Positions 4,839-44,241 of a stretch of DNA of 64,000 nt are shown here, one piece after another. Both the position numbers and the translations under genes were made by a program. The notes beneath the pieces are model-generated. The model saw nothing but the letters and a program-made list of their open reading frames with translations. It was not told the DNA's origin and made no database searches. Position 1 is the first letter of the stretch. Each line of letters starts with the position of its first letter. Origin of the DNA: Candidatus Harrisonbacteria bacterium RIFCSPHIGHO2_02_FULL_40_20 (GTDB taxonomy: Bacteria; Patescibacteriota; Minisyncoccia; UBA6257; WO2-44-18); contig MHJF01000006.1 in NCBI GenBank assembly GCA_001818675.1, forward strand, positions 3,157 to 67,156. The letters are read 5' to 3'.

Positions 4839-6299
4839 CTACCTGGCGTATTCTACCGCTCTAGTCTCTCTCACCACATTAACTTTAATTTCTCCCGGGT
4901 ATTTCATTTCGGTTTGAATTTTATGGGCGATATCTTTGGCTAATTGAAACGCGCCAAAGTCATCAATTTTTTCTGGCACTACGAAGACTCGGATTTCCCG
5001 GCCGGCGGATAAGGCATAGACGGTTTTTACGCCCGCAAAGCCAGAGGCGATTTTTTCCAATTCTTCCAAGCGTTTCAGATAGTTTTCTACGGTATCGCGC
5101 CGGGCGCCGGGACGGGCGGCGGAGATAATATCTGCGGCGGCTACGACAAAAGATTCTGGGGTGGCGAAAGGATATTCTTCATGATGAGCCTCCATAGCCT
5201 GGACTACCTCATCTTTAATGCCATATTTTTGAAGTATTTTTCGCCCCAGTTCCACATGGGTTCCTTCCACTTCATGGCTGATGGCTTTTCCGATATCGTG
5301 CAATAAAGCGCCCTTTTTCGCTGTTTCCACGTTCATTTTTAGTTCTGCGGCGATAATGCCGGAAATGTGGGCCATTTCCACGGAGTGCACTAAAACGTTC
5401 TGGCCATAGCTGGTTCGGAAATGCAGTTTGCCTAAAAGCTGGAGCAGTTCTTTTGGCAAATCAATAATTCCTACTTCTAAAGCGGATTGTTCACCAATTT
5501 CTATCATCCGTTTGTTAAGTTCTTGGCGGGCTTCCTCTACTTTTTCTTCAATTTTTGCTGGCTGAATTCGGCCGTCTTTAATTAATTTTTCTAATGCCAT
5601 TCGGGCAATTTCGCGTCGAACTGGATCAAAAGAAGAAATTATAATACTTTCCGGCGCCTCATCAATCACCAGCTCAACGCCAGTGGCTTTTTCTAGCGTA
5701 CGGATATTTCTGCCTTCGCGGCCAATAATTTTTCCTTTGATTTCTTCGTTAGGAAGCTGGAAAGAAGTAGTGGTGATATCGGCAACGTGGGATCGAGAAT
5801 AACGTTGGATTGCCCCAGTAATTATTTCCAACGATTTTTTTTCTATTTCTTCTTTTCTATCTTTTTCTAGTTTTTGGATAGTTTTTACGATTTCTTCCTG
5901 ATGACTTTGCTCTAGCATTTTCATAAGTTGCGCTAGGGCATCTTTGGCAGTTAAACCGGCGATTTTTTCAAGATCCGCCATGGTTCTTTTTCGTAATTCG
6001 CTTACTTCAAATTTATCGTTTTCTAAAGTTTTTTCTTCTTTTTCTAAGCGACTTTCTTTAAACCGAATATCGCTGGAATATTTTTCCAGCGTTTCTTCTT
6101 TTTTAATCAGCCGTTCTTCTAGGCGATCTAGCTGACTCTTTTTTTCTTGCCCTTCTTTTTTGGCCTCCTCTAGGAGTTGGGCGGCCTTTTGTTCAAGCGA
6201 TTTAGCTTTTTGGGAGGAGAGTAAGTAGTTTGCGAAGTAGCCTACGGCTAAGCCTAATACAAGAAATCCCCCCGCTGTTAATAGGGTTATTGAGTCCAT
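4839..6299 (-). CDS. rny: ribonuclease Y
   Basis: N-terminal TM helix, coiled coil, KH domain (IIGREGRNIRTLEKATGVELVIDE) and HD domain (LLHDIGKA). Confidence 0.9.
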   Translation of the reverse strand: MDSITLLTAGGFLVLGLAVGYFANYLLSSQKAKSLEQKAAQLLEEAKKEGQEKKSQLDRLEERLIKKEETLEKYSSDIRFKESRLEKEEKTLENDKFEVSELRKRTMADLEKIAGLTAKDALAQLMKMLEQSHQEEIVKTIQKLEKDRKEEIEKKSLEIITGAIQRYSRSHVADITTTSFQLPNEEIKGKIIGREGRNIRTLEKATGVELVIDEAPESIIISSFDPVRREIARMALEKLIKDGRIQPAKIEEKVEEARQELNKRMIEIGEQSALEVGIIDLPKELLQLLGKLHFRTSYGQNVLVHSVEMAHISGIIAAELKMNVETAKKGALLHDIGKAISHEVEGTHVELGRKILQKYGIKDEVVQAMEAHHEEYPFATPESFVVAAADIISAARPGARRDTVENYLKRLEELEKIASGFAGVKTVYALSAGREIRVFVVPEKIDDFGAFQLAKDIAHKIQTEMKYPGEIKVNVVRETRAVEYAR

Positions 6300-6348
6300 A
6301 AACGAAATATTGTTTTATAATTTGCATCGACGTGTTAATTCTACCTTC

Positions 6349-6377
6349 TTGCTTTATTGCTGTCAATTTGTTATAAT
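6349..6377 (+). promoter_or_regulatory. sigma-70-like promoter (TTGCTT, 17 nt spacer, TATAAT)
   Basis: Read directly from the sequence in the rny-murB intergenic region. Confidence 0.5.
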
Positions 6378-6384
6378 CGTTTAT

Positions 6385-6478
6385 AGAGTGAGTGTTAGTA
6401 TTCCTTGACGATGATATCGACCAAGGAATGTCTTAACAAATTGTGGCTAAAAGACCCGCTTCGGCGGGTCTTTTAGTT
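6385..6478 (+). ncRNA. candidate small RNA (about 94 nt) with an internal hairpin and an intrinsic terminator
   Basis: Promoter at 6349-6377; hairpin attccttgacgatgatatcgaccaaggaat; terminator gacccgcttcggcgggtc followed by a T-run; no ORF. Confidence 0.4.
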
Positions 6479-6804
6479 TGCGGCAAAAACCTTTCTGTTT
6501 TAATATTAATTTATTGGATTATCCTGTAGAACTGCTAGTCTGTGTGTTGTGCATTAGGCGCCCTAAGGGGCTGCATAGACGCGCACTCACTTAACACCCC
6601 GCACTAAAAATTGGATTGCCCTTTGGAGTCGCCAGGACGCGCACTCACTTAACACAATTTGTATAAGAGGTCACCACTGGCGATTCCATAGGACAATTCA
6701 ATTGATCCAATTTTAGTGACGGGGCAGGCAATTTTGTATTAGGAGGTCACCACATGCAGCCCCTTAGGTTGCTTAGGTGTTGTTGCTGGCAGTTCCATAG
6801 GGCA

Positions 6805-7767
6805 ATGCAAGATTCTCTTTCTATGTTTCAATCCGAGGTTAATTTAAAGCACCTCAGCAATTATAAAATTGGCGGCGGAGCAGATTATTTTTTTAGCGCC
6901 AAAGATATTCAGAGACTAATCGGGGCTGTAGCCGTAGCTGAAAAAAACAACCTGCCAATTTTTATTTTAGGCGGAGGCACCAATCTGCTTATTAATGATG
7001 GCGGCTTTAAAGGGTTGGTATTAAAACCCGATATTAAAAAATTAGAAATTGAAAAATCGGATAAAGAGCAGGTATTAGTCAGGGTGGGCTCTGGCATTTT
7101 GGTTACGGAATTTTTGAATTTTTTGATTAGCAATTCTTTATCCGGAATGGAGTGGGCTGGAGGTTTGCCGGGTACTGTTGGTGGCGCAATTCGAGGTAAT
7201 GCCGGAGCTTTTACTGGCGAAACTAAGGATGCGGTAGCGGAGGTAGTGAGTTTAGATATTTCCAAGAAGCAGCCTAAAATAATTCGTCGCGATAATAAAG
7301 AATGTAAATTTGGATACCGAAATAGCATATTTAAAATTAATGATGGAAGAGAAATAATTACGGAAGCTGTTTTTTATTTTCAGAGAGGAGATAAACAAGC
7401 GATTAAGAAATTGGTGGAAGAAAAAATCAATTATCGCCGTTCTCGGCATCCTATGGAATATCCGAATATCGGCAGTATTTTTAAAAATGTTGATTTAAGG
7501 TTGATTCCTAAAAATAAACAAAAAAACTTTGCTAATATAGTTAAAAAGGATCCCTTTCCGGTTATTCCTACTGCTTATTTAATTTCTGAAGCTGGATTAA
7601 GGGGTGTGAGTTATGGCGGAGCAATGATTTCTCCTAAGCACCCTAATTTTATAGTGAATGCTTTGGACGCGAATGCCAAAGATGTAAAAACGCTTATCAA
7701 TTTAGTGAAGGCTTCAGTTAAAAGAAAATTTGGAGTAAGTTTAGAAGAGGAAATTATTTATGTGTAG
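6805..7767 (+). CDS. murB: UDP-N-acetylenolpyruvoylglucosamine reductase
   Basis: FAD-binding N-terminus NLKHLSNYKIGGGADYF and MurB C-terminal domain; start placed at MQDSLS (ORF-track start 6754 lies inside a repeated segment). Confidence 0.8.
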   Translation: MQDSLSMFQSEVNLKHLSNYKIGGGADYFFSAKDIQRLIGAVAVAEKNNLPIFILGGGTNLLINDGGFKGLVLKPDIKKLEIEKSDKEQVLVRVGSGILVTEFLNFLISNSLSGMEWAGGLPGTVGGAIRGNAGAFTGETKDAVAEVVSLDISKKQPKIIRRDNKECKFGYRNSIFKINDGREIITEAVFYFQRGDKQAIKKLVEEKINYRRSRHPMEYPNIGSIFKNVDLRLIPKNKQKNFANIVKKDPFPVIPTAYLISEAGLRGVSYGGAMISPKHPNFIVNALDANAKDVKTLINLVKASVKRKFGVSLEEEIIYV

Positions 7768-38628: not shown

Positions 38629-38724
38629 CCCAAGCGGCAGACCTCGCATTATGCGGGGCCTTTATGTTTTAGAAGGCTTCATAGTTGGAAAGAACTTGGT
38701 TTGTTGATTTTTTAAAATAGCAGT

Positions 38725-39321
38725 ATGATGTTATTAATGTTATCAAAAGAAAAATTACAAACGCTTTATTTTAAAAGAGGGAAATCAATGCAGGATATTG
38801 CAACAATTTTGAATTGTTCTTTAAGCAAAATTAAATATTGGATGGAAAAATATTCTCTACAAACTCGATCAATTAGTGAGGCTATTTATTTAAAACATAA
38901 TCCCGATGGAGATCCATTCCGATTTAGATACCCAAAAAATATAAAAGAAGGAGTATTGTTTGGTTTGGGTCTTGGATTGTATTGGGGAGAGGGTACTAAA
39001 GCCAATCTGAATTCAATACGTTTAGGTAACACAGATCCGCAGCTTATTAAAAAATTTATTGAATTCTTGGTTCATTTTTTTTCAATTAAAAAACGAGATT
39101 TTAAATTCGGACTGCAATTATTTAATGATATAGGGGTTTTAGAGGCTATGGACTTTTGGACAAAAAACCTTAAAATAAATAGGAGCCAGTTCTTTAAACC
39201 AACAATTACAAAATCTGGCTCCATAGGCACTTATAAAAAGAAAAGTAAGTATGGGGTCATAACGGTAATGTATCATAATAAAAAATTAAGAAATTTGCTG
39301 GTTAGTTTATTGCCAATGTAG
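38725..39321 (+). CDS. LAGLIDADG-family homing-endonuclease-like protein (single-motif type) with an N-terminal HTH
   Basis: LFGLGLGLYWGEGTK occupies the LAGLIDADG position and downstream blocks are I-CreI-like (DFKFGLQLF); the stop overlaps the first 10 nt of the intron-containing tRNA-Thr. Confidence 0.45.
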   Translation: MMLLMLSKEKLQTLYFKRGKSMQDIATILNCSLSKIKYWMEKYSLQTRSISEAIYLKHNPDGDPFRFRYPKNIKEGVLFGLGLGLYWGEGTKANLNSIRLGNTDPQLIKKFIEFLVHFFSIKKRDFKFGLQLFNDIGVLEAMDFWTKNLKINRSQFFKPTITKSGSIGTYKKKSKYGVITVMYHNKKLRNLLVSLLPM

Positions 39322-39577
39322 CTCAGCTGGTAGAGCAACTCCATGGTAGGCCGCTGGCCCTGCCCACTATGCAGGTAACCGCATAGTGAATCCTGAATAA
39401 CGGTTAAAGACCTTTCGTTAGGTTAAGACCGTGGCACGTAAAAAGGCCCGAACGACTGACAAGGGTTCGCCTAAGGCGGAAAGATACAGTCTAGCCCTTC
39501 TATAATCCGTTTAAGCTACGGAAAAATGAAGGTATAAGCGAAGGAGTAGGTCGCCGGTTCAATCCCGGCCATTGGCT
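39312..39577 (+). tRNA. tRNA-Thr (anticodon GGT) interrupted by an intron of about 193 nt (exons 39312-39347 and 39541-39577)
   Basis: 5' half GCCAATG..GCTC-AGCTGGTA-GAGC-A-ACTCC-ATGGT; 3' half AA-GGAGT-AGGTC-GCCGG-TTCAATC-CCGGC-CATTGGC-T; the acceptor and anticodon stems pair perfectly across the gap. Confidence 0.7.
39348..39540 (+). other. putative group I intron in the anticodon loop of tRNA-Thr(GGT)
   Basis: 5' exon ends in U, intron ends in G (omega-G); gccg just inside the intron can pair with the exon end UGGU to form P1; internal blocks resemble the R/S core elements (agatacagtctagccc); length is similar to the small bacterial tRNA group I introns. Confidence 0.5.
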
Positions 39578-39747
39578 CAAAAATCGCTTCGCGATTTTTA
39601 CTTTTTTGATCTAATAAAAAAGTTGAAATATCATAATTCAGTCAGTACTAAATCTTTGCGACAACACATTTCTCTTGAAATTTTTCGGACAGAAGAGTAT
39701 TCTTTATGTAGAAGAAATTAGAAGGCGGGAAAAACAGATTAATTCGT

Positions 39748-42303: not shown

Positions 42304-44241
42304 ATGATAAAACTCAAAGTTTATTTTTCTAAAGATTTTTTAGTAACAGCTATTATTTTTTTGTTCGCGGTTTTAGCGAGCGGCTTTATTATTCAGGCAA
42401 CTTACGCTCAAGTCAGCCGGAATTCGTCCATTTCTTTTAAAAAAGACTCACAAGGGCTTTTTACTGTAACGATTAGAGATCCGCAAGGCATTAAGGAATT
42501 TTCATTACAGCCTAAGGGTAAATTTCCTTATGGCGGAGGAATTAGCCAGTGTCCGACGAGTCGGGTGATTGCCAATGTTGCTTTTGATGATCCTTTTGAT
42601 TTTACTCCAGCAATGGGCGCTTATGTTATTGATTGCCAGAACAATCAAGATGATTTGCAGATTCCGTCGCCAAAGGATGGGTTGACAGTATCGGCTCGGG
42701 TTGGAGTGGAGGCAGAGCTAAAAAAAGAATCGGTTCAAGAAGCTCCTGCTTCAGTAGCGCCGGTTAAACCAACTTCTGCTCCGGAAAAAGCGCCTTTGGC
42801 AGAAATTATTTATCCGGTAGCGGAATTGGGAAATTGCGGCACGGAATTTGAGTGTCGAGCTTATTGCGATCAGCCGGAGAATTTAAACAAGTGTGTTGCG
42901 TTTGCCGAATCTCATGGATTGATGACTAAAGAAGACGCAGATTTAGCCCGAAAGTTTAAAGACGTTGTGAAAAATGGCGGTCCTGGCGGCTGTAATTCTC
43001 AACAATCTTGCGAAGCTTACTGCAATGATATTGACCACATTGATACTTGCCTTGTTTTTGCGGAGCAACATGAAATTTTAAGCGGCAAGGAATTAGAAGA
43101 AGCTAAAAAAGTTCAGTCAGCGATTAAGCGGGGAGCGAAAATGCCCGGCAATTGCCGCAGTAAAGGCGCTTGTGAAGCTTATTGCACCAACTCCGATAAT
43201 ATGGATGAGTGTATCGCTTTTGCCAAAGAGAATGGTTTTATGACAGAAGAAGAATTAAGGGAAGTAGAAAAGTTTTTGCCATTGATGAAGAGCGGGCAAA
43301 CTCCTGGCGCTTGCAAATCTAAGACAGCTTGTGAAGCTTATTGCGAAGCAGAGGGAAATTTTGATGAATGCATTGCTTTCGCGGAGAAAGCCGGCCTGAT
43401 CTCCGATGAAGAACTTAAACATATAGATAAATTTAAAAAAGCCGGAGGCGTAGGTCCGGGCGGATGCCGCGGCCGGTCTTGCCAGACTTATTGTGAAAAG
43501 CCGGAAAATCAAAAAGCCTGTTTTGCGTGGGCAAAAGAAAACGGTTTTATTGAAGAAGCGGATTTGCGGCGGATGGAGGAAGGAAAGCAGCAGTTGAAAA
43601 AGGCGTTGGAGCAGATGCCGCCTGAAGCTAAAGAATGCGTGGATGCGATTATCGGGCCGGGCGGCTTAGAAGGCGATTTCGTTGGTGGGCCGGAAATCGG
43701 CGATCAAATTCGTGTTTGTTTTGAACAGGCATTTTCTCAATTTAGCGGTCCAGGCGGCCCTGGTGAACATGGAGGTTTTCCAGGGGGCGATTTTTCGGGT
43801 CCCGGCGGTTGTACTAGCGAAGAAGAATGCCAAGTTTATTGCCAAGAAAATCCGGATGATTGTCAGGGATTTGGTCCGCCGGGCGGCGGAGGCGGTCCAG
43901 GCGGTGGAGGATCTGGTGGTGGCGGTTTTTCCGGTCCCGGCGGCTGTAGTAATCCGACAGAATGCATGTCTTATTGCAAGGAACATTATAATGATCCTGC
44001 TTGCAGTGCTTTTGGAGGCGGTGTTGAATCCAGCTCTGTTCCTAGCCAGAATTACCAACAACAATATCAACAGTCACCGCTAGTTCCTCAATATATTCAA
44101 CCTTCTGGCGGGTCGTCATACGAAATTCCTATCACGCCGGAGCTTTGCGTTAACTTCCAAGCCGTTCCTGCTTGTTCTTATGTTGGGGCGCCAGATTCTC
44201 AAAATTATCAGCTTTGTAAAAAGTGTTATCCGGATAAATAA
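42304..44241 (+). CDS. secreted repeat protein with seven tandem 4-Cys modules (C-x5-C-x3-C-x7-9-C followed by an AFAxxxG helix), a Gly-rich linker and a Gln-rich tail
   Basis: N-terminal signal/TM; repeated CxxxxxCEAYCxxxxxxxEC(I/V)AFAxxxG units; family not recognised. Confidence 0.6.
   Translation: MIKLKVYFSKDFLVTAIIFLFAVLASGFIIQATYAQVSRNSSISFKKDSQGLFTVTIRDPQGIKEFSLQPKGKFPYGGGISQCPTSRVIANVAFDDPFDFTPAMGAYVIDCQNNQDDLQIPSPKDGLTVSARVGVEAELKKESVQEAPASVAPVKPTSAPEKAPLAEIIYPVAELGNCGTEFECRAYCDQPENLNKCVAFAESHGLMTKEDADLARKFKDVVKNGGPGGCNSQQSCEAYCNDIDHIDTCLVFAEQHEILSGKELEEAKKVQSAIKRGAKMPGNCRSKGACEAYCTNSDNMDECIAFAKENGFMTEEELREVEKFLPLMKSGQTPGACKSKTACEAYCEAEGNFDECIAFAEKAGLISDEELKHIDKFKKAGGVGPGGCRGRSCQTYCEKPENQKACFAWAKENGFIEEADLRRMEEGKQQLKKALEQMPPEAKECVDAIIGPGGLEGDFVGGPEIGDQIRVCFEQAFSQFSGPGGPGEHGGFPGGDFSGPGGCTSEEECQVYCQENPDDCQGFGPPGGGGGPGGGGSGGGGFSGPGGCSNPTECMSYCKEHYNDPACSAFGGGVESSSVPSQNYQQQYQQSPLVPQYIQPSGGSSYEIPITPELCVNFQAVPACSYVGAPDSQNYQLCKKCYPDK

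Follow-up and report, generated by a model that had tools for sequence, protein, structure and literature searches.

Group I introns inserted between positions 36 and 37 of tRNA-Thr(GGU) genes have been described from Patescibacteria (Castelle 2018; Williams 2020, tFind; Nakagawa et al. 2026, PMC13011429), and the most recent of these surveys reports them in 3 of 95 complete genomes of the phylum under the name 'divergent group I introns', which it credits to Castelle et al. 2018. The same survey groups them with the IA introns, states that the Rfam model RF00028 is unable to detect them and shows in its Table 1 that ARAGORN assigns two of the three genes to Arg(GCG) with an intron at 34/35; its splicing assays concern Asn and Asp introns, not those of tRNA-Thr (PMC13011429). 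The tRNA-Thr(GGU) gene considered here lies at 39312-39577 of a 64,000-nucleotide (nt) stretch of the genome of Candidatus Harrisonbacteria bacterium RIFCSPHIGHO2_02_FULL_40_20 (contig MHJF01000006.1, positions 3,157 to 67,156), which we call the window. It is split by an insertion of 193 nt and is overlapped at its 5' end by an open reading frame (ORF) of 198 amino acids, whose product is predicted to combine an N-terminal helix-turn-helix (HTH) module with a single LAGLIDADG-fold domain. The reading that we favour, and hold to be fairly probable, is that two independent selfish elements, an intron without an ORF and a free-standing HTH-LAGLIDADG gene, share this one tRNA gene.

The intron of the window agrees with the published Patescibacteria tRNA-Thr(GGU) introns in phylum, host tRNA, anticodon and insertion site, and likewise in size class (180-230 nt), in the absence of an internal ORF, in its invisibility to RF00028 and in the ARAGORN miscall as Arg(GCG) 34/35; we see no substantive difference between them, the match being one of host, site and description. 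It is one more member of the published divergent family and as such already known, and the remark of an earlier note on this DNA that tRNA-Thr is not a commonly reported host is outdated (PMC13011429). The introns of the Azoarcus tRNA-Ile(CAU) and Agrobacterium tRNA-Arg(CCU) genes (Reinhold-Hurek and Shub 1992) share with it the 36/37 site, where a U, the last base of the anticodon, directly precedes the intron, a P1 that is very short, with 3 exon base pairs (bp) including a U.G, a compact core of ~200 nt and the lack of an ORF. They belong, however, to subgroup IC3 and are detectable by RF00028, whereas the window family has a different core (J8/7 AAGAUACAGUC) and is placed with the IA introns in PMC13011429. 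The intron itself thus adds nothing new, and the part of interest is the ORF.

With the free-standing endonucleases F-CphI at psbA of a cyanophage, MobE of phage T4 with I-TevIII and the Seg enzymes in phage tRNA clusters (PMC3984707, PMC2790892) the ORF shares its presence/absence polymorphism. These are phage enzymes of the GIY-YIG or HNH type, whereas the ORF product has a predicted LAGLIDADG fold preceded by an HTH and is encoded in a cellular genome, that of a member of the candidate phyla radiation (CPR). Moreover, and again unlike these enzymes, the ORF occupies a fixed place, precisely at the 5' boundary of a tRNA gene, and its stop codon falls within the tRNA. The single-motif homodimers I-CreI, I-CeuI, I-MsoI and I-Vdi141I have in common with the ORF product one LAGLIDADG-type helix that ends in an acidic residue plus Gly; the ORF product differs from them in that it has no significant sequence similarity, is not intron-encoded, carries an extra N-terminal HTH and has Glu in place of the usual Asp. 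The Gram-positive transcription factor WhiA consists of two degenerate LAGLIDADG domains, which have lost the catalytic acids, and a C-terminal HTH, and is universally conserved in its clade. The ORF product, unlike WhiA, has one domain, an N-terminal HTH and a retained acid (an invariant Glu), and its distribution is patchy, with signs of decay. No account of HTH-LAGLIDADG genes docked at the 5' edges of Patescibacteria tRNA genes was found within the limits of the literature searched, the most recent survey having sought endonuclease genes only inside introns (PMC13011429), and such docking seems to be unreported.

An ORF linked to the tRNA-Thr(GGU) gene

The ORF extends from 38725 to 39321 on the forward strand, on which the tRNA gene and all elements of the intron lie as well, and its family start codon is probably the ATG at 38737. 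Its TAG stop codon (39319-39321) coincides with tRNA positions 8-10, and the ORF as a whole stands upstream of the tRNA gene, the intron being devoid of any ORF. This agrees with the earlier note, which had the ORF end 10 nt inside the 5' exon and lie outside the intron; the ORF is encoded neither within an intron nor within an intein. As the ORF ends at tRNA position 10, its stop codon is the universally conserved U8-A9-G10 of the tRNA, and the conserved C-terminus of the ORF family, '...LPM*', is the tRNA acceptor stem translated as codons.

The relation of the ORF to the tRNA gene and to the intron was followed from both sides. Starting from homologues of the ORF, 80 genomic loci were fetched, all of them from metagenome-assembled genomes of Patescibacteria. 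The tRNA-Thr(GGU) gene is located directly downstream on the same strand in each of the 80, with the intron in 49 and without it in 31. Where present, the insertion splits the gene at the identical site (36/37), shows the boundaries U|...G| and measures 180-230 nt, which bears out the splice junctions of group I type that the earlier note had proposed. The exact 10-nt overlap between ORF and tRNA gene recurs in 51 of 75 measurable loci (28 of 47 with the intron and 23 of 28 without). Among these loci no conservation is seen in the flanking protein genes, the largest other cluster comprising 16 of the loci. On the side of the intron, a scan of metagenome contigs with an exact pattern of its core gave 121 matches, 97 of which resolve as tRNA-Thr(GGU) 36/37 introns. 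Searching the translated upstream regions of these 97 loci with a hidden Markov model of the ORF, and recounting the results, yielded about 30 intact ORFs, 6 decayed remnants and about 45 clean absences, in which an upstream tRNA may be as near as 25-77 nt; the remaining loci are too short to judge.

These patterns of presence and absence mean that all four combinations of ORF and intron exist, and the remnants that the ORF can die in place. The latter (in L086, L091, L163, L168, L180 and L199) are found directly upstream of the intron-bearing tRNA-Thr gene and comprise C-terminal fragments, copies with frameshifts or in-frame stops and one in which residues 1-46 have been joined to 168-192 by an internal deletion; the motif region is lost in all of them and the end next to the tRNA is kept. 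The ORF is linked to the tRNA-Thr(GGU) gene, not to the intron. The pairing of the intron with a homing endonuclease, as implied by the earlier note, holds in part: about half of the loci that have the intron do carry an endonuclease-type gene close by and outside it, but the ORF stays with the tRNA whether or not the intron is there, and it is missing from about half of the loci with the intron. One comparison may record horizontal movement of the unit, or else a rearrangement: in L035/L036 and L042 the segment of ORF, tRNA and intron is 89% identical over 949 nt, whereas the upstream 2 kb show no similarity and downstream just 508-917 nt can be aligned, at 72-74%.

The predicted protein begins with an HTH DNA-binding module (residues 8-43, 38746-38853), which is matched, weakly, by Pfam HTH_23 in 22 of 30 family members and also by PHROG families, those matching residues 6-55 being annotated as HNH endonuclease (E about 2e-6). 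There follows a LAGLIDADG-like motif, LFGLGLGLYWGEG, at residues 78-90 (38956-38994), within LFGLGLGLYWGEGTK at residues 78-92. In 30 homologues G80, G82, G84, Y86, W87, G88, E89 and G90 (YWGEG) are invariant. The AlphaFold model built on an alignment of 30 sequences (predicted local distance difference test, pLDDT, 88.6) has a helical N-terminal domain, a helix at residues 73-89 and an alpha/beta core. The helix, with its small residues and a closing Glu-Gly, is of the LAGLIDADG type, and the core has the alpha-beta-beta-alpha-beta-beta-alpha order of the LAGLIDADG fold. The structure model and the motif allow us to assign to the ORF product, with moderate confidence, an HTH plus a single LAGLIDADG-fold domain. 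The earlier note had called the ORF LAGLIDADG-like, and in fold and motif (E89-G90 ending helix 73-89) it is; the Pfam LAGLIDADG models do not reach threshold, a point to which we return below.

Homologues of the ORF number 1733 at E<=0.001; most have 194-198 amino acids, are unnamed or 'hypothetical' and come from Patescibacteria. A search with the ORF profile against 1.84 billion cluster representatives gave 1717 matches at E<=1e-10, some of which are unrelated multi-HTH proteins. In P0131, P0137, P0141, P0153 and others (500-820 amino acids) it is the N-terminal HTH of the profile alone that is matched, in 6-14 tandem copies, so that these are multi-HTH repeat proteins, and the solved 'CAP repeat' chain 8vd6 matches the profile in the same manner, through its HTH part. 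The comparative sequence evidence marks the ORF as a real gene, and the notion that it is spurious was rejected.

Diverged paralogs of the ORF are associated with other tRNA genes. Sequences in the fetched loci that match the ORF profile less strongly (35-115 bits) carry the motif YWCEGAK or YGCEGAK, in which xCEGxK is kept. Sixteen of 17 such matches are followed on their 3' side, at a distance of -120 to +22 nt, by a tRNA gene on the same strand; 2 of the 17 are contig-cut copies of the ORF itself. The neighbouring tRNA gene of the 16 is Trp(CCA) in five cases (L017 4196-4834, L019 4533-5198, L038 2800-3468, L058 5210-5986 and L117), Tyr(GUA) in three (L110, L128, L151), Thr(UGU) in two (L100, L147), Met(CAU) in two (L104, L182) and an intron-bearing tRNA gene in four. 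In L017 and L019 the overlap with tRNA-Trp is again 10 nt. A family of homing genes with separate targets, for which tRNA genes serve as conserved landing sites, would be expected to show such a pattern.

Group I architecture of the insertion

ARAGORN, when introns are allowed, calls a tRNA-Thr(ggt) at 39312-39578 with i(37,193), and the exons spliced in silico form a regular 74-nt tRNA-Thr(GGU) cloverleaf with an acceptor stem of 7 bp, an anticodon stem of 5 bp and the anticodon loop AUGGUAA, so that the split of this gene by a 193-nt insertion, as first noted from the sequence, holds. The 5' exon (39312-39347) comprises tRNA positions 1-36 and ends in ...ACTCCATGGT with the anticodon GGU terminal, the insertion (39348-39540) begins with AGGCCGC and ends with ...AAGCG, and the 3' exon (39541-39577) comprises positions 37-73, begins with AAGGAGT and does not encode CCA. 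The exon end ...GGU(39347), followed by 39348-39540 ending in G and then by AAGGAGU, is the sole junction compatible with group I chemistry, and it places the intron between tRNA positions 36 and 37.

Neither Rfam nor ARAGORN in its default mode without introns reports a tRNA at 39312-39577 among the 12 found in the window, and many of the homologous split tRNA-Thr loci are miscalled by ARAGORN as Arg(gcg), the miscall described in PMC13011429, or as His. RF00028 has no match in the window at the gathering score, nor at E<=10 on 39250-39650, and matches none of 19 homologous tRNA-Thr intron loci at the gathering score. As a positive control, the model finds a canonical intron in a tRNA-Tyr gene of L016 with 61.7 bits. 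This tRNA-Tyr(GUA) gene (L016 2632-2926), situated just upstream of the ORF, contains a canonical group I intron of 212 nt with the RF00028 match at 2660-2872; an intron visible to RF00028 beside a divergent tRNA-Thr intron means that two intron families occur in one tRNA cluster. The earlier note had proposed to let an RF00028 search speak against the intron, which would have been misleading here: we do not take the miss as a refutation because both covariation and the literature account for it. As RF00028 and the default tRNA finders miss the intron-bearing gene, tRNA-Thr(GGU) can look absent from CPR genomes.

Since RF00028 gives no match, comparative data from homologous loci were needed, and 46 distinct introns, that of the window and 45 others, were aligned together with 10-nt exon flanks. 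Unguided RNAalifold folding of this alignment recovers the anticodon stem, P1, P2, P4, P5, P6, P7, P8 and P9, with compensatory changes in 28 of 48 pairs. The pseudoknotted helices P3 (columns 94-96 with 200-202) and P9.0 (columns 260-261 with 309-310) were spotted by eye and added to this structure. In the full structure of P1-P9 with P3 and P9.0, pairing extends to 96.9% of cells, against 79% in shuffled controls and 33-44% when the partners are slid, and both-sides changes occur in 33 of 53 pairs; none of 500 shuffles matches the observed values. Every helix is at least 91.8% paired, and P2, P3, P5, P6, P8, P9 and P9.0 covary; P4 and P7 are invariant, so that covariation is uninformative on these two.

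The helices follow one another in the order typical of group I introns. P1 (39345-39364) pairs the exon bases G-G-U (39345-39347) with an internal guide G-C-C (39362-39364), and columns 8-10/63-65 are paired as GC, GC and UG in all 46 introns; the U.G wobble at the 5' splice site (columns 10/63) is U39347.G39362 in the window and, like the two adjoining G-C pairs, is present in 46 of 46. The strands of P1 are separated by an extension hairpin internal to the intron, which covaries. P2 (39365-39388, CACTATGC / GCATAGTG) has compensatory changes in 8 of 9 pairs. The 5' strand of P3, CCU (39392-39394), pairs with GGG (39463-39465) in a pseudoknot around P4-P6, which is 98.6% paired with both-sides changes in all three pairs. 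P4 (39400-39405 with 39427-39432) is invariant and 100% paired, and is separated by the A-rich J4/5 and J5/4 from P5 (39410-39413 with 39420-39423), where all four pairs are compensatory; in P6 (39433-39448; 39433-39435 with 39446-39448) this holds for 4 of 5 pairs across the family. The 5' strand of P7, GACUG (39454-39458), pairs with CAGUC (39487-39491), is invariant with 99.6% paired, and is succeeded by J7/3 ACAA and the 3' strand of P3 (39463-39465). P8 (39466-39480) is compensatory in 4 of 4 pairs and leads to J8/7 AAGAUA and the 3' strand of P7, CAGUC, whose columns (39481-39491) are invariant and form the group I 'S' element, presumably the counterpart of the classic 'S' consensus AAGAUAUAGUC. 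The core blocks that the earlier note had described as R/S-like are recognisable in this scheme, GACTGACAAG being P7 plus J7/3 and AGATACAGTC J8/7 plus the 3' strand of P7, both invariant or nearly so in the alignment. P9.0 (39494-39539) consists of G39494-C39539 and C39495-G39538, is 100% paired and has 20 and 16 both-sides changes (GC/AU and CG/UA, respectively); it encloses P9 (39496-39500 with 39528-39532; 4 of 5 pairs compensatory) and P9a (39506-39510 with 39518-39522). The terminal guanosine, omega-G, at the 3' splice site (39540) is a G in 46 of 46 introns.

This P3-[P4-P5-P6]-P7-P3'-P8-P7' pseudoknot topology, followed by P9 and joined by the U.G and the terminal G, substantiates the initial description of the intron as group I-like: with its defining architecture shown by covariation, the insertion is a group I intron. 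We infer from its membership in the group I family that it would self-splice in a guanosine-dependent manner. Introns with the same core blocks as in the tRNA-Thr intron (CGAACGACTGACAAGGG ... ATACAGTC) also occur in a protein-coding gene (MATYASSSSSIAVLKELYVDNSDF...) of L088, which is split by at least two of them (6290-6470 and 6745-6935), with a probable third near 7640; the joined exons matched no PHROG family. The divergent intron family thus extends beyond tRNA-Thr.

Two probably independent elements on one tRNA gene, and the alternatives

The most likely identity of the ORF product is that of a homing endonuclease acting as a homodimer, or of a relative recently descended from such an enzyme, and the ORF behaves like a free-standing, selfish and dispensable element in that its presence is independent of the intron, it decays to remnants and it has tRNA-specific paralogs. 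How would two such elements come to share one gene? On the side of the intron, the exon G-G-U would pair after transcription with the guide G-C-C to form P1, in which the U.G wobble lies at the 5' splice site, P7 would bind a free guanosine that attacks this site, and the terminal G, held by the 2-bp P9.0, would then take the place of the guanosine, whereupon the exons would be ligated and the anticodon loop AUGGUAA restored. The ORF, in turn, would have integrated exactly at the tRNA gene's 5' edge, using U8-A9-G10 as its TAG stop. The putative endonuclease would break DNA in or near a tRNA-Thr(GGU) gene, and the break would be repaired from a donor that carries the ORF. Because the ORF ends just 36 bp from the intron site, such repair could co-convert the intron as well, which would explain the frequent co-occurrence of the two. 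Finally, cleavage by RNase P at the 5' end of the tRNA would strip the last codons and the stop of the ORF from the putative shared transcript.

Several observations weigh against this reading. None of Pfam LAGLIDADG_1, _2 and _3 scores above threshold in the ORF or in 30 close and 42 diverse members of its family, the best sub-threshold match being to LAGLIDADG_3 (E 0.009-0.014, in 9 of the 30 and 4 of the 42), this being the search which the earlier note had suggested. Foldseek of the ORF model against the PDB returned nothing at E<0.001, sequence and profile searches against PDB chains matched the HTH only, and hhalign of the family profile with I-CreI gave a probability of 0.2%; the I-CreI-like downstream blocks of the earlier note are therefore without a signal at the sequence level and amount to a resemblance in fold. 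The protein is unusually conserved for the product of a selfish gene (50-70% identity, 39 invariant columns), to which a host function would also fit. Correlation of ORF identity with that of EF-Ts, RpsB and DnaE gave a Rho of 0.06-0.16, which favours neither vertical nor horizontal inheritance, as few loci share a flanking gene, divergences are saturated and the wrong paralog was taken in four loci. In L004 and L063 the ORF stands beside an intron-less tRNA that agrees with the spliced tRNA of the window in each of its first 44 nt, which means that the enzyme cannot simply cut every intron-less allele and that the intron is not required everywhere for self-immunity. Lastly, documented self-splicing of the divergent tRNA-Thr intron family was not found in the literature searched.

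A closer partnership is conceivable, in which the endonuclease cuts intron-less tRNA-Thr(GGU) genes at or near 36/37, the intron protects its carrier by interrupting that site and both spread by co-conversion, that is, collaborative homing in trans. The phage cases in PMC3984707 show the same layout of a free-standing endonuclease gene next to a gene with an ORF-less intron, and the 36 bp between the end of the ORF and the insertion site would suit such a scheme, as would the presence of the intron in 61% of the ORF loci (49 of 80) compared with 3 of 95 complete Patescibacteria genomes (PMC13011429), figures that are uncorrected for phylogeny. Intron-bearing tRNAs moreover have a nearly uniform anticodon arm, ACTCC-ATGGTAA-GGAGT, whereas the intron-less tRNAs next to an ORF are diverse, as would fit exon co-conversion or target immunity, and the ORFs of L052 (with intron) and L075 (without) are 83% identical beside very different tRNA exons. 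We nevertheless regard this partnership as unlikely, since L004 and L063 combine the ORF with an intron-less tRNA that has the anticodon arm of the intron-bearing group, the ORF is missing from about half of the loci with the intron, and paralogs stand beside intron-less Trp, Tyr and Met tRNA genes. The ORF product could also be a domesticated, LAGLIDADG-derived DNA-binding factor of the host which, in the manner of WhiA, acts at or near tRNA genes, for example in the regulation of transcription, and has no role as a nuclease or in mobility. Its HTH module, its strong conservation and constant length and its fixed position relative to the tRNA gene across distant lineages would be accounted for in this way. 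Patchy presence with clean absences and six decayed remnants would not, nor would the association of each paralog with a tRNA gene of its own, as expected for target-specific homing genes. Moreover, the acidic residue of the motif is invariant and kept even in the diverged paralogs, unlike in WhiA, and a single domain with an N-terminal HTH is not the architecture of that protein, so that a domesticated factor appears to us quite improbable.

It is very improbable, in our view, that the ORF product is a maturase on whose binding to the intron RNA efficient splicing by the divergent ribozyme depends. LAGLIDADG maturases are known in organelles, the ORF adjoins the intron and often co-occurs with it, and the intron is small and departs from the standard model. 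Of the roughly 85 intron loci that could be assessed, however, about 45 have no ORF and 6 more a dead remnant, so that co-occurrence is far from obligate; 31 of 80 ORF loci have no intron, paralogs flank intron-less tRNA genes, and the intron core keeps its full conservation whether an ORF is present or not. As ORF and intron so often occur independently, we reject this role. We give next to no credence to the insertion being something other than a group I intron, such as another type of intervening sequence or an assembly artefact. The silence of RF00028, in the window even at E<=10 and throughout the 19 homologous loci, would be in line with it. That model is documented to miss the family (PMC13011429), yet found the canonical intron of L016, and covariation backs the group I helices, the P3 and P9.0 pseudoknots among them, the U.G and the terminal G are universal and the same element occurs in more than 140 independent assemblies.

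Returning to two independent elements on one tRNA gene as the preferred reading, a broader form of it can be put forward tentatively, as a possibility that we would not yet call likely: the HTH-LAGLIDADG homing endonuclease genes of Patescibacteria may form a superfamily of free-standing elements, each dedicated to one tRNA gene (Thr-GGU, Trp, Tyr, Thr-UGU or Met), which would dock at the exact 5' boundary, borrow the universally conserved U8-A9-G10 as stop codon and, at Thr-GGU, co-convert the intron. Processing of the tRNA by RNase P would then take the stop codon off the mRNA, so that expression of the endonuclease would be coupled negatively to tRNA maturation. If the protein is active, it would offer a mobility route for tRNA-Thr introns and a natural case, in a cellular genome, where an ORF-less intron and an endonuclease gene that stands free of it have come to share one target; together with its paralogs it would make up a group of proteins specific for individual tRNA genes. 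That the stop codon falls within the tRNA furthermore points to a possible link between RNase P processing and the expression of an upstream gene.

Surroundings of the locus in the window

The local gene order, with gene names assigned by eye from the translations, is rpsB, tsf, tRNA-Tyr, tRNA-Thr(UGU), the ORF, tRNA-Thr(GGU), rpmG, a membrane protein gene and tRNA-Trp. Terminator-like hairpins with a T-run are found directly 3' of tRNA-Thr(GGU) (39579-39609, forward strand) and 3' of the upstream tRNA-Thr(UGU) (38642-38658), in a consensus scan that found 2 where 1.1 were expected. As these two hairpins flank the ORF and tRNA-Thr(GGU), the pair forms one probable transcription unit, which suggests that both are carried on one transcript. 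Further downstream, at 42304-44241 on the forward strand, there is an ORF of 645 amino acids with a signal-like N-terminus, many Cys-rich repeats (C..C.AYC...D.C..FA...G) and then a Gly/Pro-rich tail.

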